From a virus (taxonomy: Duplodnaviria; Caudoviricetes), in IMG/VR virus record IMGVR_UViG_645044602_000001, positions 1 through 64,000 of that record: DNA of 64,000 nucleotides; one strand, given 5' to 3'. A model generated the notes under the pieces. The model was given only the letters and a program-made list of their open reading frames with translations, ran no database searches and was not told the origin of the DNA. The position numbers and the translations under genes are program-made. Below, one piece after another: positions 38,337-49,694 of this stretch. The stretch's first letter is position 1. The number at the start of each line of letters is the position of its first letter.

Positions 38337-41300
38337 TCACTGACCCCCATTCATCAGGTTGATCCACGGGTTCAACTCAGGTGCATCAAAGAGCATCTCA
38401 TACCCCGTAGCATAGTCCAGATTACCAGCAGCCATCACAGCCAAGATGTTATCACTGATTGGGCTGTTCATATCTGTCATTGCGTTCAGAGCCAGTGAAC
38501 GAACCGGATTATCTCGCATCTGCTTTGCAGCAATCTTGAGAATACGGATCTTAAAGGCCATGAACCAAGTAAGACCATTCGACTCCAGACCGGAGCGAAC
38601 ACGACCCGGAAGCACAGAGAAGTTAACGAACTCTTCGTTGACCATCGCTGATGCTACCTCAGCACTAAGTCCCTGAGAAATCAGGTGGTCGTAATAAATA
38701 GACTTAGCGATGAAGTCACCATACTGGGTTGCTCGATTGAGCACCTGATACAGTTTCGTAGACTTCGAAACCAACCCCACCTTAGCAATATCAGCAGCAC
38801 GCTCTGGGAGCTTCTCAGACAGCTTCTCGATGTAATCACCAATACGACCTGACGAGATGTCTACATCGAGATCAGTGATACCTTCAGACAACTGCTTGAA
38901 CTGACCAGCAGCAATCATCGGAGCAATCGACATCTGTTTGTTCAGATCTTCGAGAACCTGAATACGGTCATCAATGATTTGACGCTGATTGTCATTACGA
39001 GCAATGATTCGCTTCTGTTGAAGATCAATGATCTTGGTTCGATTGTGAATGAACTCCTCAGCTTCAGCCAGCTTTGAACGATAACCCTTCGTGATCTGTT
39101 TCAGAGGTACACCAGCATTGGCCAACTGCATAGCGTTAGCTTGGATGTTAGCCACTGGAACTACTAGAGACCGAACCACGATGATGTCTTTGGCCGTGGA
39201 TACGGTCCCTTGCAGAGCCTCTTCACCAGCAGCAAGCATCCTCATGGCCTTACGACCCATGAAGGCTTCTGTAGCCCCTACAACGACAGCACGCATGGGC
39301 TTAGGCATACGAGACTTACCAGACCACATATCAGTGATCGAAGGCTCACGATAACCCACAGCCAAGTTCACCATTGAACGAGGCACCATAAAGGCTCCAT
39401 CGAACTTCGATTCGATATAGGACTTCGTGGACTGAGGAATCAGTTTCCATGACTCCTGATAGATCTTATCCGTAGACCGTTTCATGTCTTCAAATTCAGC
39501 ATCAGACCCATTCTCACGATTCTCCCAGATCTTATGAAGCTCATCCACCAGTTGCTTGTTGTATTGATCAGCAAGGCTTTCTTCCACCTGACGACCAGCC
39601 CAAGCACCCAACATCACAGCAAGGTTCTCTTCACGACCCAAGTGAAGTTCTTGAATCTCATTCGAGATCGACCGTTCAAAACCAAGAACAGAACCATCAC
39701 CAGCAAACACTGGCATCAATGCTTCCTGTTCATTTTCCAGAACAGTGTTTGGGTTCAGTTGGTCTTGAACAATACGATCTACCGAAGAGTCACCAGTAAT
39801 CAGACCAGCCACAGAATTCCCTACAGTCATGCCAGTATTGGTATCCACACCCCGATAGGTCATGGCTACGTTCTGTATCACACCTTGAGAATAGGCACCC
39901 TGACGACGAACAGTCGAGACATAATAAGACCGTGGATAGATGGAATCTGTTTCACCCTGATAAGGGATATCCAGTTTCACATAACCCATCCGTTCACGAG
40001 CATCTTTGTTGCTATCCAAGTCAACAACGATCTGAGTATTCTTCCGACCTTCATTCGGAATGTACCCTTTGTAACCATTCAAACGAGCCTGTTCAGTGAT
40101 ACCCGGCTTGGCTTCTTCTGCTTCATTCAGACTTTGAATGTATGCCACAATTGAAGTCACACCATTCGGATCAGTCTGCCACAGTTGCACAACCTCTTCA
40201 CGAGTTTGAGCATCCATACGATCAATGGCATAGACTGACACCAGACGATCAATCTTGGACACCATGTCAGGAGTACCTTCACCATCAAGATTATTGACGA
40301 TGGCATAAGCATTCCGAACCAGCAACTTACCTACAGCCTGACCATTCATGAAGTCAGCCAATTGCTTCGACTTGGCAATCACATCTGCCATTGCAGAACC
40401 AGACAGAGACTGAGCCAGATCTTGTTCAAGACGCTGGATCTCATTCCGACGAGTCGCACTTTCTTCAAGGAACTTCATGGTTTGACGCATGTTGTCCAGA
40501 TCGACCAGTACTGAAAAATCAGTCTTGGCCAGAGTGTTGAACATGGCTTTCCATTGTTCTTTCGTGGGCGGGATTACAAACTCACGCTCCAGAATACCGG
40601 GAAGATCTTCACGATAAGCCTGACGCATACCAGATACAGCAGCATTTACCTTGTTCAAAAGATCCACAACCACGGAGTTCTGCTTATCCGTACCCACGAT
40701 TTCTGAAACCATTTCCCGAATAGGAACAATGGACAGAATAGGAAGACCCATGTGAGTGATCTTTTTGGCTCCTTGTGCAGTCAGATCAGTGTTCTTCTTG
40801 TCCAGCAAGTTCGTTGCCAAAGTGACAGAAGACATCAGGAAAGGAATTACCTTTCCACGAGACTGAGCTTGAATCTCCTGATCCTTACGCAGCATCCAAT
40901 CTGACGTAGACGACAGAGCACCAGACACCATGTTGTCAGCAGCCGTAAGGGATTCCGTCACACGCTTCAGCAGACGGAACTCTTTCTCCTTGTCATGGTC
41001 AATGATGACTTGAGCGACAGCATCCAGCACTTCTTGAGGAGCGTTGTTCTCGTTCAGAGACCCCATCAGTTTCTTCATAGAGAATGAGGCAGCCCGAGTC
41101 ATGAAGTCCACCAGAGAGCCTTCCACGGCAGCCTGTGCTTCAGGTGCAGGGATCTGTTCTAGAACAGCCCGAAACTTCTTCGAAGTCTGGCTGAGAGCAA
41201 ACAGAACCGCAGCAGCATCAGACGTTCCTTCGTTCTCAATTGAGCCAAAGGAATTCAGAACAGCCGAATAAGTCTGACGATCTTCAGGGTTCGAACCAAA

Positions 41301-44300
41301 CATCTCAGGAGTCATGTTCTCAACAATGTGCTGGAATACACGGGTCAGAGCAATCCGAGCCGTAGCATCCAGTTTCATGTTGGACAGCATGATACCGTAA
41401 ATGGCTTTGAAGGTTGAACGATCCTTCGAATTTGCCAGCAAACCACCCTGACGAAGATCATTGATAACTTTCTCAGCATTGTAGATGTCACGGCCAGTCT
41501 TCTGTTTTGCAGAAGTATCCGTCACAAAGCTACGCATGTAGGCTTTGAGGTTTTCAATCCAGTAATCAGAATGGTTTTCAAACGGATCAGAAGTCTCATC
41601 ACCCGGTTCATCCGGAGGAGGGGTATTCCCATTACCACCATCATCCACATTCGGTTCGTTTAGAACACGAGTGTTGAATACCACATGATCATAAAGTGAA
41701 GTTGGCATTCCACCCAGCATCCGACGCAGCAAGGCAATAACCTTGCTTCCGAAGTCTGCAATGACAGAGACTTGCTTTGCAGTAGACCGAACACGACTGT
41801 TCGTCAGGACATAGGCCATGAATTCATTCACAGCAGCAGCCTGATTGATCGGATCGTTACGAGCCATACGACGAGCAATAGCAGCTTGTGCTTCATTCAT
41901 GGCTTTACCATCCGATTGGATGTCCATGAATTCACCCATCAGGATCTCAAGACGAGCCACAGCATCATTCTTCACACCCTGATAGTGTTGCAAAACTGCA
42001 CCATAGGTTGCAGCATGAACCATTTCATGAAGCACAGCTTCATTCGTATCAATGCTCATGAACATGACATTGTTCTTGAAGTCATAGTTCGAAGGAGCTT
42101 TCAGCACTGCACCATCATCAGGGAAGTTCTGTTGACGATATTCATTCAACTGATCCAGAGTACCGAAGATCACACGAACATCTCCCATCAAAGGCTTGAG
42201 GATTTCCACAGCCTTTTTCTGATCAGGAGTCAGGTTACGCATGTTATCCAGTAGAGCCTTTGCAATGGTAAACTCCACAGGTTTCTTCACATCCTTTGGT
42301 TTCGTGTCATTGTTGATCTCTTTCTCAATCCGATGGTTCACTTCAGAAAGAGTCCACGACTCACCATCACGAGTGAAACCAACATCTGAACCGCCCATCT
42401 GATCGACAGATACAGCCATCTGCCGGAAGACTTTCTTTCGAGCACGATTCTCTTTCAGTCGCTTGGTCATTTCAGCTTGCAAATCTTCCGGACCTTGGAA
42501 GAATTGCAAGGACTCTTTTTTGTTGTCCGTCATCAGTTCAGCCCAGACATCATTCAGGATGTCAGCTTCCAAATTGTTGGACATAAAACCTTCGAAGTTC
42601 TGTACAGCCATGCCCAGAACATCTCGATCCCAAGACTTCAATACAGCCTCATTGATCTGAGGAGCATACTGTTTGATCTTGGAAACCGGAACGTCGATAC
42701 CATCGAACACCGGAAGAACATCATTCGGTGCATTATCAGCACCAAAGATGAGGTTCATCATCATGGCATCCCCAGTACCAATCACTGCAAATGGTAGAGC
42801 ACGAACTCCAACGTCATCAGGACGACGCATACGAGCAGGAGTAACCAGCTTTTCATCAAAGTTTGAAGACAGACGAAGATCAGTAAGTTTCTTATCGAAA
42901 CCACCCACAGCCAAAGTCTGTTCATCAGACACGAAGATTGCTCCCATCTGACTCAGACGGTCTTCCAATTCCTTGAAGTATTTCCGAGGAATCTCTCCTT
43001 TGTTGGGTTCACCTTTTTTGTTCCGTTTGATCACACCTTCACGAGCCAGCTTTTCAGCCAGAGCATTGATCTCACGATCAAACAGTTTCTGAAGATACTC
43101 GGACTGAATGTTTGTAGACAGAACCAGCATATCATTCAGTTGTTCAATTCGATGGCCTAGAACCTGACGAGTAGCATTCGTCAGAACCTTACCAACTGTA
43201 AACTGAATGGCTTTCCGGAATGCTTCCACTTGATCATTCGAGAACACAAAATTCTTGTCAAAGCTGTTAGGCAGCTTCAGACCAAGAGTTTCCATGTCTT
43301 TCACAACACCCGGATAGTAATAGGTATCCCAGTCAGCATTTTCTGGTATAGTCTGGAGTTTCTCATAGAACTCCAACAGCATGTCATCAGCCACACCAAT
43401 AGCCACGCCTTGAACACCAGAACCATAGTTCACTTTGGTCATAGGATTCTTAGCAGTGTTACGGGTCATCTTGAAATCACCATTCGGCAGCATTTCAAAG
43501 TTACCAAAGGCTGAGGCCAGACGACCAGCAGCTTTCCGTTGCTCTTGTTGCCAAGGCTTCAGGAACTTCAGATCACCAGTCATCATCTGATCACCCAATT
43601 GGGAGACCATCTCATAAAGGTCTTTTTCCTTATTCTTGAAGAACTTGTTCACGGTCATTGCCGTGGTTCCAAGGAAGTAACCCACACGTTTGAAGTTGCC
43701 CCAGTCTTCAGGAGTCATCAAACCATGACCAAAGTTGATCATCATGTTGGCAGCACCATTGGTTAGACCATCAAGCTCAAAGCTCAGAGCAGTCTCAAAG
43801 GTTGCTTCACCATTGGCCACAGCCAGTTCAAAACCAGCAATCGCTTCAATAGCAGCCAGCACAGCAGGTTCCACCTGACCCACTTCAGTCAAGAAAGCAT
43901 CTGAGTCGAACTCACCAGTGGTCATCAGATTTTTGACCATCTGAACCGCAGGACCATACTTGTCTGCAAAGGCTTCTTGAGCAGCACGGAAATCATCTTC
44001 CCGGTCTTTCTTCTCAGCTTTGTACATATCAGCTTGCTGAAGAACACCAAGCCACAGAGCCTGAATATCATCAGCATCAGTCGTAGACAGCACAGACCGC
44101 TGAGGTGCCACCACATACCGCATCAGCTTGTTGTTCTGAGGGTTCGGACCTTGCATCTGATGACGACCAACTTTGGTCACACCGACAGGGAAGAAAACTT
44201 CAGAGGCTTGTTGTTCCATCATCCCATTGATCAGATCAGTCACTTCAATCAGATCACGACGAACAGAAGCATTCTTACCCAGAACTGAACGCTTTAGCAC

Positions 44301-47300
44301 AGGATGAGTCACAGACGCAGGATCACGATATCCAAGCATCGTAGCAAGGTTATCTTCACCAATTGCTTCCAGCAGCCTTGCACGGCCCATCTGAAGACGA
44401 TGAGGGATATCCTGCATACGACGAACAGCCATACGCTCCAGAGCCGACATAATCCCTGTGCCACGTCCTTTACGGACTGACACGGTAGGGATCTTTGAAC
44501 CAATGCTATAAGACTCACGAGATTCATTGAAGATTGTTTCCCGAACAGTGTTCGAGATACCTTCACCTTTGGCTCCAGCAATACGCTTCTGATAGTCTGA
44601 CATCTTTTCAGTGTTTACCAGAATGGTAGCAGCATCTTGTTGATTTGCTTCACTGGTAAGTTTCACCGTGTCGATGTCGATGATGTCCATCTCAGCAAGA
44701 ACCGTCAGGATCTCTTTGGCGAAACCATGAGTTACACCTTCCAGATCATCAACGCTTGCTTCTTCATTCTCTTTGATGTGCCACAGACGCTTCAAATCAT
44801 CAGCAATTGTGTCAGATAGCTGACTTGGCGGAATACCAAACAGGATCTTGTTCATACCTTCTTCGGTCAGATCCAGTTTGTTCAGCCCCATTTTCTCCAG
44901 AGTATCATCCAGTTTCCGAGGATCAGACGCAGCAGCAGTCGAGATAAAATCCATCACTGCCAGAACCGCAAGGTTCAGCATGTCAGGATCATATTGTTCA
45001 GTTTCCGGATTCATCAAAGCACCAGCTTTGAACTTTCGAAACTCAACACGACCATCTTTAATGTGCTGTGCAATGGTCTTCGTAATCTGACCATCTTTCA
45101 CACGCATTTTCAGACGAGCATTCATCCGCTGTACAAAGTCAGGCAGAATTTCATTCATGATCGTCAGGTACTCACGGTTCATTTTGAACTCAGAACCAAA
45201 CTTCTGCATGAGATCATCCAGACTGGTAATCACAGGATCACCATTTCGAGGTACAAAACTCTTGTTGAAAAGAGCCGTTACCTTCCGAGAGGATCCGGAT
45301 ACGGAGGCGGTGTCTGCTCCCTGAGATCCTCCGGAGTTTCGCTCTCCGTCGGATGATTGAGTTTCTTCGCTGGATACTTCAGTGGTAGTTCCAGTTGTTT
45401 CGGTTCGGATGAGATCGCCATAAACTTCCTCCATAAAGGCAGCAGTGTTTCCAAGATCTCCACTGAATTCTTCAGTAGAGAAAGCCATTTCCGTAGCCAC
45501 TGCGAAGAGTTCAGAAGCAATCTTTTCAGGAGTGTTCCGAGTAAAAGCATACTCCAACCGATTGTTAAAGAACCCACTCATCTTACCACGCAGAGCATTC
45601 ATTTCATTGTAGATTTTCCCACTTTTGTAGAACATCCGAGCAGATGAGTAGGGACGACCAACAGGATTGGCATGATTATCAACCAAATGGCCAGTCTCAT
45701 GTACGAGGATAGCTTTCCCCAGAGCATTGAGAGTCCCATCAGGATTGAACCCATCTTCTCGAATGTGAATGGTTTGGTCTGCAAAGAAAGCATGACCAAG
45801 CCCAGCAACCCGAATCGGAACAATACGGATTTGCTTCACATACTTGTTCATCGTAGGCATCGTTGCCTTGATGAATGAACGAGCATTACCCAGACGTTCA
45901 CGGACAGTTTCCCGCATACGAGCTTTTTCAGCTTCCGTCATCTGAGCAACAATATCATCCCATTTGGTTCCTGAAGGGATAGGCTCATCGGAAACTATTT
46001 CCTCATTCGTCTCGGTCTCAGAAGTCGCTTGCGCTCTTTCTTCGTCCGTTCCTCTTTCGGAATTACTTTCCTCTTCGACAGCCGTTGGAGAGGTATCTGA
46101 TTTTGTATTCCTCAGAATCAAACGTCCATCGACAAGATCAAAGATGATTTCCACACCTTCGCTTTGATCAGAAGCACGAGCACCTGATTGGCGAAAACCA
46201 GCCACACCAACTGCATTTGGAAACTCTTTAAGAATTTTTCCCGCAAGAAACCTCATTTGTTTCATGCCGACATTATTTGGTCCTTTTTCAGAAGTAACAA
46301 CAAAATTATCAATAAAGTTTTCATACTCATTGTATTCGAAAGTTCCTGCAATTCTTTTCCCAGAAGCAGTTACATATCCAAATTCAAACATACCAGCATT
46401 TGGAGACACTTCCCGAACAATAAATCCACCCTCTTTAATAGTATCAAAGATACTAAGAAACAGTCCGATACCATTCCAATAAACCATGGACTCATTTGTT
46501 TTTGTCTCATCGGTTTCTGCTGGCGCAGAAACCTCCTCGACAACCGTTGGACGAGCATCAATATTCTGGTTCACGATAGCAATCTGATCACCATTGAACA
46601 CGATCACAATCGCATCTGTCCCATCAGACAGAATGATCGCATCATGATTACCAGCTTTGTAATCCATCTCCAGTTGACCACGTTTCGTCAGCCATTGGTT
46701 TTGAGGATCATCAGTCTCAACCAGCAGAGGATTGGTGGCACGAACATTCACAGACATTAGTCGTGGATTCGATTTACCAATAGCATACTCACGTCCCTGA
46801 CCTTTACGAGTAGTCAGGAAGATCCCATCACGAGAATCAGCAAACTGATCAAACTCAACCCCACCAGTCCCATGATAGAAGACCATCACATTATCCTGTT
46901 CATCAGTGATGAACCCGGTATCAGTGCTGATATTCAGGTCTTCTTCTGTAGTCTGGTTCTGCTCCTCGGTTTCTGACGAAACCTCGTCGTCAGCCGTTGG
47001 GGTTTGAGTTTCTTGGTTTGTCTGTTGGTTCTGCTCGTCAGAAGTTTCTGGCGAAACTTCCTCCTCGATACCCGTTGGTTGGGTATCAGGCTTCGCCAAC
47101 ACAACCTTCTCCATTTTCGGGAATGAACCAAAGACTTCAGGGAATTCTTCACGCAGCGTGTTGAAAGCATCGACCACAGCATTCTGGTCTTCAGCAACCT
47201 GTTGTGCGAATGCAACACTATTGGGATTGCTCGGTGAATACCGAACACCCTCACGACGTACACCACGAATAGGACTGTCAAAGTTCTTCAGACGACCGCC

Positions 47301-49694
47301 ACGTTTCCCATCTGGAGATGTGTAACCATCAGCAAGAGACTCATTCAGAGCCTGCACCTTGTTCACCATGTGCTGTGCAAAGTTCTGCATGTCTTTCATG
47401 ACATCAGTGACAGACTGGACTCGTCCTTGTTGGTTGATGACGGTCCCTTCAGGGGACTGGATACCAGTGAAAATCTCTCGGACAAAATCGTTGATTGACC
47501 GCAGTTTCTTACCACCCTCAGATACCATGCCATCAGCATAGATCTGACGGGAAACATCGGTGATGGTTTTCTCCTTCCCAGCCGGTCGGCCAGAAGCAGT
47601 AAGATTGACGTTTTCTGTTCGAGAAATTTGAACCTTGGCTTCCACATTCCGGTTCACAATACGAGCCAGTTTCGAAGCAGCTTTCATCAGCTTCGTATCT
47701 TCAGGTGAAATCTGTTCACCTGATTGCTCAAGAATGAGATCAGTAGCGTCAGGATTTACAGCCGTAGGATTGACCTTCGCAACATTACGAACAGTCTGGA
47801 TATCCGTAGGAGCACCTTCTTTGTTCAGATCCAGAGTTGTAGCTTTGGTCACTACATTCTGAACCATCTTCGAAGACAGCACCTTTCCAAATTCCTTTTG
47901 AGCCTCTTTAGGCAGACTTGTAATCATACCCTGAAGTTTCTGAAACTGAGCAGCAGCATACGCAATGTCTGCATCAGTAGCTTTGAACCCTTTCGATCCC
48001 ATCTTGGCAACGATACCAGTTACGTTGTCAAAGACGTTGCGTGAACCACCAGCAACATCTGCCAGACCTTCAGATGGGACTTCCACATCAGGAGTATCGA
48101 AAGCAATTTGAATGTTATCACGCAGTTGCCCTTTGGCAGCCACATCACGAAGAGATTCCGAAGCATTCACAGTGGCTTGTACAGACTCCACCACTTCCTT
48201 GTCAGTTGGACGATTTGTGTATTCCACAATCTCTTGTCCCACTCGACCAGCAAGATTGGCAGCTTGAGTCGCACCAGCAGATACAGCAGTTGCAGCGGCT
48301 TCACGAACAGGACGAGTTACATCGGCTACAGTCTGAGCAGCACGAGAAGCCACAGAACCACCCATGATATCCTGACGCAGAGAATCGTTATAGGTTGTCT
48401 CTGAGAACAGAGCATTAGCAGCCTCAACCGCAGTCTGGGCTGAACCACGCACAGAAGCAGGAGTAGCCATCACACCAGCCACACCCATACCTGCAATGGC
48501 ACCCAAAGCAGCTTCTTCGCCCACTCCTTCAAGAGCACCACGACCAATTTGAGCATACTCTTCAACCGACATATTTCGATTGATGGTTCCAGATGCACCT
48601 TGGCCAGCTTCTTCGATACCTTCACCAGCAATCGACAGAAGACCTTTGGTCACGCCAACTCCACGGAAACTTCCGATAGGCATCGCTTCAAAGCGAGATG
48701 TGATGAAACCAAGAGCAAGAGAAGGTGCAATCTGACGAATAGCAGCAGTTTCAGCAGCCATGCCAGCAAGCTGAAGACGAGCATTCTCAGGAGTGAACCC
48801 TTCACTCAAAAGCTCATTGTAGAGGCTGGAAGTTACACCCAGACGTTCCAGAGGAATCGACATCACGTCATTGACGGTCTCAGCATAGACACCAGCAACT
48901 TCCGTAGTCGCTGCACCAGCAGAAATACCAGCAGCCTGTGCTGCACGTTGAGCCACAGTATTACGGACCAGAGCAGTCGTAGCACCTTTGGCAATAAGAC
49001 CACCTGCACCAGCCAGAGGCACTGACAGAGCCAGATCACCAATACCTTCAGAGATGATCTGTCCAGTCACATCAGGACTGTTCCATGCTCGTTCAGCAGA
49101 CTCGACAGCGTTACGTCCTTCACGACGAAGACCAGCCATAAAAGGATCAGCACCTTCTTGAACTTCACGTTCATAGACGGCTTGATTATCCATCTTGTCC
49201 AGTTCACCTTCAATCTGGAACAGACGAGTACGATCTTGAAGCTGAGTAGTCAGGTTGTTTTGAAGAAAACCTTCCACATTCCGATTATGCTCACTCAGGA
49301 TATCAGCAGTGGCTTGCTCACGAGGAATAGCCCCATCAGTCATCCAATCGACCATGTAACCAGCACCAATACCAGCAAGGTTGCCAAAGGTACGATAAGC
49401 AGCACCAGCCGCTCCTGTAGCACTGTCAGAAATAATCTCACCAGTTGAGCGTTCACCACGATCAATACGGTCAATCCGAGCACTTCCTTCACCCATCCGC
49501 ATGGCAGCACGATATGCAGGATCACCGTACTTTGCACGGATCTCCACATCATTCATATTGGCCATATCTTGGATGAGTTCGTCACTGAAACCAGTGTTTC
49601 GAGTCCGAGCGACAGCAGCGGTATCCTGAAAGTTAGGATCACGGAGACGGGCAGCAATCATTTCAGATGCAAGGAGTTCGTCGCGTTCAGACAT
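38337..49694 (-). CDS. Virion-encapsidated RNA polymerase (N4 gp50-like), 3785 aa, with extra inserted domains
   Basis: TKVGRHQM, FELDGLTNG (motif A), RNTAKNPMTKVNYGSG (motif B) and PVFDG (motif C); giant size; no Cys seen by eye. Confidence 0.97.
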   Translation of the reverse strand: MSERDELLASEMIAARLRDPNFQDTAAVARTRNTGFSDELIQDMANMNDVEIRAKYGDPAYRAAMRMGEGSARIDRIDRGERSTGEIISDSATGAAGAAYRTFGNLAGIGAGYMVDWMTDGAIPREQATADILSEHNRNVEGFLQNNLTTQLQDRTRLFQIEGELDKMDNQAVYEREVQEGADPFMAGLRREGRNAVESAERAWNSPDVTGQIISEGIGDLALSVPLAGAGGLIAKGATTALVRNTVAQRAAQAAGISAGAATTEVAGVYAETVNDVMSIPLERLGVTSSLYNELLSEGFTPENARLQLAGMAAETAAIRQIAPSLALGFITSRFEAMPIGSFRGVGVTKGLLSIAGEGIEEAGQGASGTINRNMSVEEYAQIGRGALEGVGEEAALGAIAGMGVAGVMATPASVRGSAQTAVEAANALFSETTYNDSLRQDIMGGSVASRAAQTVADVTRPVREAAATAVSAGATQAANLAGRVGQEIVEYTNRPTDKEVVESVQATVNASESLRDVAAKGQLRDNIQIAFDTPDVEVPSEGLADVAGGSRNVFDNVTGIVAKMGSKGFKATDADIAYAAAQFQKLQGMITSLPKEAQKEFGKVLSSKMVQNVVTKATTLDLNKEGAPTDIQTVRNVAKVNPTAVNPDATDLILEQSGEQISPEDTKLMKAASKLARIVNRNVEAKVQISRTENVNLTASGRPAGKEKTITDVSRQIYADGMVSEGGKKLRSINDFVREIFTGIQSPEGTVINQQGRVQSVTDVMKDMQNFAQHMVNKVQALNESLADGYTSPDGKRGGRLKNFDSPIRGVRREGVRYSPSNPNSVAFAQQVAEDQNAVVDAFNTLREEFPEVFGSFPKMEKVVLAKPDTQPTGIEEEVSPETSDEQNQQTNQETQTPTADDEVSSETEEQNQTTEEDLNISTDTGFITDEQDNVMVFYHGTGGVEFDQFADSRDGIFLTTRKGQGREYAIGKSNPRLMSVNVRATNPLLVETDDPQNQWLTKRGQLEMDYKAGNHDAIILSDGTDAIVIVFNGDQIAIVNQNIDARPTVVEEVSAPAETDETKTNESMVYWNGIGLFLSIFDTIKEGGFIVREVSPNAGMFEFGYVTASGKRIAGTFEYNEYENFIDNFVVTSEKGPNNVGMKQMRFLAGKILKEFPNAVGVAGFRQSGARASDQSEGVEIIFDLVDGRLILRNTKSDTSPTAVEEESNSERGTDEERAQATSETETNEEIVSDEPIPSGTKWDDIVAQMTEAEKARMRETVRERLGNARSFIKATMPTMNKYVKQIRIVPIRVAGLGHAFFADQTIHIREDGFNPDGTLNALGKAILVHETGHLVDNHANPVGRPYSSARMFYKSGKIYNEMNALRGKMSGFFNNRLEYAFTRNTPEKIASELFAVATEMAFSTEEFSGDLGNTAAFMEEVYGDLIRTETTGTTTEVSSEETQSSDGERNSGGSQGADTASVSGSSRKVTALFNKSFVPRNGDPVITSLDDLMQKFGSEFKMNREYLTIMNEILPDFVQRMNARLKMRVKDGQITKTIAQHIKDGRVEFRKFKAGALMNPETEQYDPDMLNLAVLAVMDFISTAAASDPRKLDDTLEKMGLNKLDLTEEGMNKILFGIPPSQLSDTIADDLKRLWHIKENEEASVDDLEGVTHGFAKEILTVLAEMDIIDIDTVKLTSEANQQDAATILVNTEKMSDYQKRIAGAKGEGISNTVRETIFNESRESYSIGSKIPTVSVRKGRGTGIMSALERMAVRRMQDIPHRLQMGRARLLEAIGEDNLATMLGYRDPASVTHPVLKRSVLGKNASVRRDLIEVTDLINGMMEQQASEVFFPVGVTKVGRHQMQGPNPQNNKLMRYVVAPQRSVLSTTDADDIQALWLGVLQQADMYKAEKKDREDDFRAAQEAFADKYGPAVQMVKNLMTTGEFDSDAFLTEVGQVEPAVLAAIEAIAGFELAVANGEATFETALSFELDGLTNGAANMMINFGHGLMTPEDWGNFKRVGYFLGTTAMTVNKFFKNKEKDLYEMVSQLGDQMMTGDLKFLKPWQQEQRKAAGRLASAFGNFEMLPNGDFKMTRNTAKNPMTKVNYGSGVQGVAIGVADDMLLEFYEKLQTIPENADWDTYYYPGVVKDMETLGLKLPNSFDKNFVFSNDQVEAFRKAIQFTVGKVLTNATRQVLGHRIEQLNDMLVLSTNIQSEYLQKLFDREINALAEKLAREGVIKRNKKGEPNKGEIPRKYFKELEDRLSQMGAIFVSDEQTLAVGGFDKKLTDLRLSSNFDEKLVTPARMRRPDDVGVRALPFAVIGTGDAMMMNLIFGADNAPNDVLPVFDGIDVPVSKIKQYAPQINEAVLKSWDRDVLGMAVQNFEGFMSNNLEADILNDVWAELMTDNKKESLQFFQGPEDLQAEMTKRLKENRARKKVFRQMAVSVDQMGGSDVGFTRDGESWTLSEVNHRIEKEINNDTKPKDVKKPVEFTIAKALLDNMRNLTPDQKKAVEILKPLMGDVRVIFGTLDQLNEYRQQNFPDDGAVLKAPSNYDFKNNVMFMSIDTNEAVLHEMVHAATYGAVLQHYQGVKNDAVARLEILMGEFMDIQSDGKAMNEAQAAIARRMARNDPINQAAAVNEFMAYVLTNSRVRSTAKQVSVIADFGSKVIALLRRMLGGMPTSLYDHVVFNTRVLNEPNVDDGGNGNTPPPDEPGDETSDPFENHSDYWIENLKAYMRSFVTDTSAKQKTGRDIYNAEKVINDLRQGGLLANSKDRSTFKAIYGIMLSNMKLDATARIALTRVFQHIVENMTPEMFGSNPEDRQTYSAVLNSFGSIENEGTSDAAAVLFALSQTSKKFRAVLEQIPAPEAQAAVEGSLVDFMTRAASFSMKKLMGSLNENNAPQEVLDAVAQVIIDHDKEKEFRLLKRVTESLTAADNMVSGALSSTSDWMLRKDQEIQAQSRGKVIPFLMSSVTLATNLLDKKNTDLTAQGAKKITHMGLPILSIVPIREMVSEIVGTDKQNSVVVDLLNKVNAAVSGMRQAYREDLPGILEREFVIPPTKEQWKAMFNTLAKTDFSVLVDLDNMRQTMKFLEESATRRNEIQRLEQDLAQSLSGSAMADVIAKSKQLADFMNGQAVGKLLVRNAYAIVNNLDGEGTPDMVSKIDRLVSVYAIDRMDAQTREEVVQLWQTDPNGVTSIVAYIQSLNEAEEAKPGITEQARLNGYKGYIPNEGRKNTQIVVDLDSNKDARERMGYVKLDIPYQGETDSIYPRSYYVSTVRRQGAYSQGVIQNVAMTYRGVDTNTGMTVGNSVAGLITGDSSVDRIVQDQLNPNTVLENEQEALMPVFAGDGSVLGFERSISNEIQELHLGREENLAVMLGAWAGRQVEESLADQYNKQLVDELHKIWENRENGSDAEFEDMKRSTDKIYQESWKLIPQSTKSYIESKFDGAFMVPRSMVNLAVGYREPSITDMWSGKSRMPKPMRAVVVGATEAFMGRKAMRMLAAGEEALQGTVSTAKDIIVVRSLVVPVANIQANAMQLANAGVPLKQITKGYRSKLAEAEEFIHNRTKIIDLQQKRIIARNDNQRQIIDDRIQVLEDLNKQMSIAPMIAAGQFKQLSEGITDLDVDISSGRIGDYIEKLSEKLPERAADIAKVGLVSKSTKLYQVLNRATQYGDFIAKSIYYDHLISQGLSAEVASAMVNEEFVNFSVLPGRVRSGLESNGLTWFMAFKIRILKIAAKQMRDNPVRSLALNAMTDMNSPISDNILAVMAAGNLDYATGYEMLFDAPELNPWINLMNGGQ

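Follow-up and report, generated by a model that had tools for sequence, protein, structure and literature searches.

T4 Alt is a virion-packaged ADP-ribosyltransferase (ART) that is injected with the phage DNA and modifies the host RNA polymerase and other proteins (PMC5512222). An Alt-like role was also proposed for a second family, ART-PolyVal (Tox-ART-HYD2-like), by its describers, who prototyped it on the virion RNA polymerase (vRNAP) of Roseovarius Plymouth podovirus 1 (CBX87992.1; PMC5512222). Such "N4-like" ARTs are counted among the most frequent viral ART families in a 2022 survey, where the clade is written HY-[EDQ] (PMC9503650). The vRNAP of phage N4 itself is described as expelled into the cell, with flexibly linked subdomains that form "beads on a string" able to pass a channel of approximately 35 Å (PMC13434306). 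Here we analyse a domain of the ART-PolyVal kind in a 64,000-nucleotide stretch of viral DNA (the window), which comprises positions 1 to 64,000 of the 73,325-base IMG/VR record IMGVR_UViG_645044602_000001 (completeness estimate 98%) and comes, as judged from its sequence, from a marine N4-like roseophage. The domain is encoded at 46563..46904 on the minus strand and covers amino acids (aa) 931-1044 of a 3785-aa polyvalent vRNAP (38337..49694, minus strand). We propose, with moderate confidence, that these residues form an ART-PolyVal (N4-like ART, HY-[EDQ]) bead that is injected with the vRNAP and ADP-ribosylates a host macromolecule. As an annotation the domain is ordinary: the fusion of an ART to a vRNAP was published in 2017 from comparative genomics (Iyer et al. 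2017, PMC5512222), and Pfam flags the domain on this exact protein, for which the PF18760 match is precomputed in the protein collection. The newer part is an orphan insert directly after the ART, together with a set of repeated linkers.

By published description, the vRNAP of Roseovarius Plymouth podovirus 1, a roseophage by name, agrees with the window protein in ART family, in being an N4-like vRNAP with metallopeptidase modules, and in the predicted role of its ART as an injected, Alt-like modifier; the two differ in the active-site triad, which is H-Y-D in the publication (PMC5512222) and apparently H-F-D in the window copy. CBX87992.1 did not turn up in our searches of the phage collection. 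Close copies lie in gp60 of DSS3phi2 and in the vRNAPs of vB_RpoP-V12, V14, V17 and V21, in which the ART is 96.2% identical over 131 aa and occupies the same position (aa 928-1042). These proteins lack the insert found after the window ART, and their public records annotate only "virion RNA polymerase". The analogy with T4 Alt, which an earlier note on this DNA had offered as a precedent, was drawn by the describers of the family as well (PMC5512222). The two ARTs nevertheless differ in type, because T4 Alt is a separate protein of the R-S-E clade (Alt/VIP2), whereas the window ART is of the H-Y-[EDQ] type and fused to a polymerase (PMC5512222). In line with this, the describers place ART-PolyVal outside the R-S-E clade (PMC5512222), and the window domain has no R-S-E Pfam match at E ≤ 10 and carries an H-G-T rather than an R/S-x-S motif.

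The assignment to ART-PolyVal rests on profile scores as well as on short motifs. The earlier note had read a series of motifs from the letters at 46565-46890, naming neither the strand nor the published fusion, and a scripted search placed all of them in order on the minus strand within aa 935-1044: FYHGT (46866-46880, aa 939), FDQF (aa 948), GIFLT (aa 957), EYA (aa 969), MSV (aa 980), NPL (aa 988), GNHDAII (46632-46652, aa 1015), VIVF (46596-46607, aa 1030) and DQI (aa 1036). According to the list of open reading frames and its translation, all lie within the frame 38337..49694, and a plus-strand reading of 46565-46890 contains many stops. The motif set is more than a chance pattern, as the profile scores show. 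In the whole protein, PF18760 matches aa 931-1044 with 38.4 bits (E 2.6e-9), above its curated gathering cut-off of 31.2 bits, and the score of the excised piece is 45.2 bits (E 2.1e-11); profile positions 1-136 of 140 are matched. In the phage record, searched in all six frames, PF18760 matches once, at 46563-46904 on the minus strand (43.6 bits), and in 14 control genomes searched likewise it does not match at all. By the family's own Pfam threshold, aa 931-1044 are thus classed as ART-PolyVal, as the note had suspected. Other searches return little: at E ≤ 10, Pfam finds in the excised domain only ART-PolyVal and one chance-level match, the best PHROGs match has an E of only 0.08, and the sole match in a profile search of PDB sequences is at chance level (E 0.76). 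A locus search of IMG/VR with the single domain leads to one near-identical contig.

Structure prediction agrees with the profile. Using an alignment of 18 sequences (the window copy and one copy from each of 17 relatives), AlphaFold2 yields a model with a predicted local distance difference test score (pLDDT) of 90.2 and a predicted template modelling score (pTM) of 0.84, and Foldseek comparison indicates that the model has an ART fold, nearest to the catalytic domains of diphtheria toxin and of tankyrases and other PARPs. Specifically, all three PDB matches at E ≤ 0.001 are to the diphtheria toxin catalytic domain; further PDB matches include tankyrases, MbcT, exotoxin A and an anti-CRISPR entry. 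The predicted viral structures of BFVD yield 57 matches at E ≤ 0.001, led by the vRNAP of roseophage RD-1410W1-01 (query TM-score 0.85), and of the best 50 of these 57, 14 bear the name ART-PolyVal or PolyVal ADP-ribosyltransferase. With diphtheria toxin, exotoxin A and the PARPs and tankyrases, the window domain shares an H-G-[ST] motif in strand 1, an aromatic residue in strand 2 and an acidic one ahead of the penultimate strand. These proteins differ from it in sequence (approximately 13-15% identity) and in size (approximately 190 aa or more, against about 115 aa); in the window ART, Phe replaces Tyr, Asp replaces Glu and the additional PARP subdomains are absent. The likeness is in fold only, as neither PARP nor Diphtheria_C gives a Pfam match at E ≤ 10. 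The anti-CRISPR entry, 6kyf, is a small ART-fold phage protein and a weak match (rank 44, E 0.012, query TM-score 0.39). We take it to be AcrIF11, a phage ART whose substrate is a Cas protein and which is thus directed at host defence; unlike the window ART, it is a free early protein and not delivered with the virion. A weak match to a podophage ejection protein of solved structure, in the pre-ejectosome of cyanophage A4 (chain 9k3a_B; rank 16, E 0.0037, root-mean-square deviation 11.5) was set aside as probably due to chance, and neither "ADP-ribos" nor "transferase" occurs in the main text of the A4 pre-ejectosome paper.

We aligned 27 domain copies, 14 from single-copy proteins, most of them of vRNAP length, and 13 from multi-copy polyvalent proteins. 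The published active site of the family consists of a His in strand 1, a Tyr in strand 2 and an Asp in strand 5 (PMC5512222). In the window copy, the predicted NAD+ (nicotinamide adenine dinucleotide)-binding His941 of the Y-H-G-T motif (46872..46874, minus strand) lies in strand 1, at model residues 20-24; it is His in 26 of the 27 copies and in 13 of the 14 single-copy ones, and the adjoining G942 is invariant (27/27). Phe959 of GIFLT (46818..46820, minus strand) lies in strand 2 (model residues 39-42), at the probable position of the published Tyr. This column holds F in 18, W in four, Y in four and H in one of the 27 copies, and F in all 14 single-copy ones. It is aromatic but variable among the retrieved copies, and another aromatic residue, Tyr970, sits in the helix after strand 2 (model residues 45-52). 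The model continues with a β-hairpin (59-66 and 70-74) and a long helix (78-95). Asp1018 of GNHDAII (46641..46643, minus strand) stands just before the strand at 100-104, at the start of the fifth main strand, and is Asp in 27/27 copies, in 14/14 single-copy ones and in 18/18 sequences of the model alignment. Asp1027 of TDAIVIVF (46614..46616, minus strand) immediately precedes strand 109-113, the penultimate one; the last strand spans 119-123. In this column, E occurs in 14, D in seven and other residues in six of the 27 copies, and the single-copy set is wholly acidic (E in ten, D in four). Additionally, Q1037 is Gln in 25 of 27 copies. The His, the Gly, Asp1018 and the acidic 1027 column are kept at an overall identity of 22-47%.

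The position of D1027, directly before the penultimate strand, is also where H-Y-E ARTs carry their catalytic Glu. The earlier note had found the catalytic Glu not obvious in TDAIVIVF and had raised the option of a domain that only binds NAD+ or acts as an NADase; this premise does not hold, since D1027 is acidic and its column is E or D throughout the single-copy copies. With an acidic residue in place, the sequence gives no special reason to prefer such a restricted activity. Either Asp1018 or Asp1027 may correspond to the published Asp, as both are present, and the Phe for Tyr in strand 2 appears to be the one real deviation from the published active site. The Phe and Asp substitutions may lower or alter activity.

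These substitutions bear on a reading in which the activity of the domain stops at the binding or hydrolysis of NAD+ (by an NADase or NAD+ phosphorylase) and nothing is transferred to a macromolecule. Possible effects would be a local drop in host NAD+, or the sensing or shielding of NAD+ in the face of defences that deplete it. The Asp for Glu and the Phe for Tyr speak for it, as does the existence of NAD+-degrading members of the ART fold: MbcT (6fkg_A) has the highest query TM-score, 0.54, among the PDB matches listed, and the ART clades described in the 2022 survey include NADases and NAD+ phosphorylases (PMC9503650). Against it stand both conserved acidic residues, the H-G-T motif and HY-[EDQ] placement that group the domain with transferases (PMC5512222, PMC9503650), and the small number of copies that we presume a virion to carry, which would be unlikely to shift the NAD+ pool of a cell. 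We therefore regard NAD+ turnover or binding alone as unlikely.

Several proteins in the alignment depart from the single-copy pattern. P0012, P0015 and P0019 are large proteins with 8, 10 and 5 tandem ART copies, respectively, as counted with a profile built here, and echo the Pseudomonas protein with 12 copies described by Iyer et al. 2017 (PMC5512222). Copies from such multi-copy forms often lack the acidic residue at 1027 but always have Asp1018. The ART copy of P0014 (3468 aa), at aa 1241-1370, has lost the strand-1 His to a Val (LYVGT) and is likely an inactive variant within the single-copy set.

Whether the window copy could itself be a catalytically dead structural bead, spacer or packaging remnant is addressed by its substitution pattern. 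Compared with DSS3phi2, the ratio of non-synonymous to synonymous substitution rates (dN/dS) of the ART is 0.074 (7.5 non-synonymous and 23.5 synonymous changes over 114 codons), against 0.111 for the polymerase core and 0.09-0.16 for the other segments, all from this single pairwise comparison. The ART is thus under purifying selection at least as strong as that on the polymerase core. A dead bead would be in keeping with the Phe at the Tyr position and the Asp at the Glu position, with the Val for His in P0014, and with a domain that is dispensable in related phages. It fits poorly with this low dN/dS and with the retention of the His, the Gly, Asp1018 and the acidic 1027 column among divergent copies, and we consider it very unlikely.

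The dispensability itself follows from the distribution of the domain. Among 1.84 billion representative proteins, 17 relatives were retrieved at E ≤ 0.001, 11 of them 3131-4371 aa long; of five relatives that were scanned, vRNAP_dom was found in three, and ART-PolyVal was listed in all five and above its cut-off in three. When the polymerase core is the tblastn query against a collection of 50,697 phage records, 197 of them match. The same search with the ART domain matches 14 at E ≤ 0.001, all of them roseophages, with two more chance-level rows up to E 5; because single-sequence tblastn is insensitive, the 14 represent close relatives only, and Foldseek shows many remoter ART-PolyVal proteins in other phages. 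PF18760 at E ≤ 0.01 is found in none of five other Schitoviridae records (V13, DFL12phi1, Bp4, RHph_N38 and Axy11), with the window's own record as the positive control. V13, which lacks the ART, shares its host with ART-bearing phages, and in V13 and DFL12phi1 nothing but an acidic linker separates the N-terminal block from the peptidase block. Absent from these five records and low in dN/dS, the ART module is accessory but maintained where it is present.

This distribution also bears on a function in cis, in which auto-ADP-ribosylation of the vRNAP or modification of co-ejected proteins would regulate ejection, envelope release or polymerase activity. The ART is covalently part of the vRNAP, N4 vRNAP is described as being under allosteric auto-regulation by a different domain of the same protein (PMC13434306), and these facts lend the idea some appeal. 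Many ARTs also modify themselves. Most vRNAPs nonetheless work without an ART, given the five ART-less Schitoviridae and the 14 records matched by the ART against 197 by the core, and such rarity makes a core regulatory role unlikely. We accordingly give an action in cis little credence.

In the mechanism that we favour, namely modification of a host macromolecule by an injected transferase, the ART would be one bead of a beads-on-a-string polyprotein, with acidic low-complexity linkers on either side. The capsid-packed vRNAP would be ejected into the cell together with the leading DNA, ahead of all phage gene expression. NAD+ would be bound through His941-Gly-Thr together with the aromatic Phe959 and Tyr970, Asp1027 and/or Asp1018 would serve as the acidic catalytic residue, and a single ADP-ribose would be transferred to a host macromolecule (mono-ADP-ribosylation). 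The target would most likely be a protein, for example the host RNA polymerase, a defence factor or another factor that acts early. An active domain would constitute an injected modifier joined to the very enzyme that initiates phage transcription. A natural comparison is offered by ART-bearing phages (DSS3phi2-type and the window phage) and the ART-less V13, with Ruegeria pomeroyi DSS-3 as the common host.

The choice of a protein target can be set against nucleic acid. A DarT-like domain that ADP-ribosylates host or phage DNA or RNA could halt replication or transcription in the host, or tag the phage genome as it enters, and an ART tethered to a DNA-bound polymerase would be well placed for this at the site of genome entry. 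ARTs are described as modifying nucleic acids as well as proteins (PMC5512222), and the 2022 survey raises action on nucleic acid for another HY-[EDQ] family (PMC9503650). No DarT-type sequence or fold match appears among the matches listed, and the describers group the family with protein-modifying ARTs (PMC5512222), which leaves nucleic acid an improbable target in our judgement.

Several observations weigh against transfer to a host macromolecule. At the active site, the strand-2 residue that probably corresponds to the published Tyr is a Phe in the window ART and throughout the single-copy set, and an Asp takes the Glu position at D1027; a change from Glu to Asp lowers activity in well-studied H-Y-E enzymes. 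The absence of the domain from the other Schitoviridae marks it as dispensable. No eraser is encoded in the phage record, in which there is no Macro, ADP-ribosylglycohydrolase or NUDIX match. As for delivery, the N-terminal domain of N4 vRNAP is described as "likely membrane-spanning" (PMC13434306), and it is by inference that we place the ART bead in the NAD+-containing cytoplasm. For the family itself, the literature searched, largely without subscription journals, yielded no biochemical test of any family member, and the characterised ARTs in the accessible part of the 2022 survey (Alt, ModA, ModB and PARPs) come from other families (PMC9503650). The main text of the 2026 N4 structure paper contains no occurrence of "ADP-ribos" (PMC13434306).

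Directly after the ART, the window protein carries an orphan insert of 154 aa (aa 1049-1202; 46089..46550, minus strand; 462 nt) that is absent from DSS3phi2, with which a global alignment shows one clean in-frame insertion. The G+C fraction of the insert falls to 0.33, against 0.43-0.53 around it. The insert belongs to no Pfam or PHROG family and has no relative by tblastn in the phage collection. Word-seeded protein searches found none among proteins of 73-233 aa or 234-2000 aa and only the window protein itself among those of 2081-6624 aa; pattern scans of IMG/VR and metagenomes gave no confirmed match, and in the protein atlas it scores 0.90 to unrelated clusters. A single-sequence model is too poor for its fold to be named. 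The start of the insert (MVYWNGIG) and its last two strands look slightly ART-like, and a second, degenerate ART was considered and rejected, as hhalign gives a probability of 0.16% (E 0.36) and BLASTP an E of 0.42 over 8 residues. The insert may be a recently captured orphan effector bead.

The insert is flanked by two copies of an imperfect direct repeat (CCAACGGnTGTCGAnGAGG, coding strand; 46066-46088 and 46528-46550). Two more copies are found upstream of the ART, at 46978-47000 and 47056-47078, within the acidic E/T/Q-rich linker that connects the N-terminal region to the ART (aa 871-930; 46905..47084, minus strand, as read from the translation) and that contains PTGIEE (aa 873) and PTADDE (aa 899). 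The repeats encode P-T-[AGV]-[VID]-[ED]-E. A scan with a somewhat looser pattern finds the motif four times in the window vRNAP and twice each in those of DSS3phi2, V13, DFL12phi1 and R7L, and not in the vRNAPs of RD-1410W1-01 and DS-1410Ws-06. All occurrences fall within the linker zone, far more often than in shuffled sequences, which contain approximately 0.1 per protein and at most 1 or 2. The two motifs of V13, like those of DFL12phi1, lie at a distance of 26-28 residues, and the sequence between them is linker only.

This repeat pattern fits the gain and loss of modules by recombination between linker repeats, and could equally mark a cleavage site. On this basis we tentatively suggest, as a possibility short of an even chance, that roseophage vRNAPs have a cassette slot, placed after the N-terminal ejection region and ahead of the first metallopeptidase, in which injected effector beads are gained and lost through recombination at P-T-[AG]-[VI]-E-E linkers. 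The ART would be one such cassette and the 154-aa insert a second, possibly a new injected effector or anti-defence factor. Alternatively or in addition, the linker motif may be cut so as to release the beads once they have been ejected. Together, the linker repeats and the orphan insert hint at how polyproteins of this kind acquire new beads.

The remainder of the protein and its surroundings are those of an N4-like vRNAP. Pfam matches vRNAP_dom at aa 2297-2434 (158.4 bits), vRNAP_dom_2 at aa 1754-1860 and N4_RNAP_helical at aa 2064-2120, and the protein shares 90% amino acid identity with DSS3phi2 gp60, annotated as "virion RNA polymerase". The 5' 5.7 kb of the gene is 87.8% identical in DNA sequence to the group of DSS3phi2 and vB_RpoP-V12 (Schitoviridae, Rhodovirinae, Aorunvirus), which infects Ruegeria pomeroyi DSS-3. 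The beads are arranged as an N-terminal region of approximately 870 aa, the acidic linker, the ART, a peptidase module with the motif HETGH, the polymerase and a second HExxH module, so that the 3785-aa vRNAP, with two HExxH modules and an N4-type polymerase, has the make-up of a polyvalent protein. In a motif scan, HETGH, of the first, zincin-like metallopeptidase module, lies at aa 1332 (45687..45701, minus strand), and HEMVH, of the second module downstream of the polymerase, at aa 2556 (42015..42029, minus strand); neither region matches any Pfam model. Two HExxH zincin-type motifs thus bracket the polymerase core, matching reports on N4-like vRNAPs: N4-like RNA polymerases are reportedly always fused to metallopeptidase domains (PMC5512222), and a conserved HExxH is described in subdomain C1 of N4 gp50 (PMC13434306). 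In the vRNAP of RD-1410W1-01, the ART is present and the first HExxH is absent. The genes next to the window vRNAP are N4 gp52-55-like, and their order matches that of DSS3phi2.

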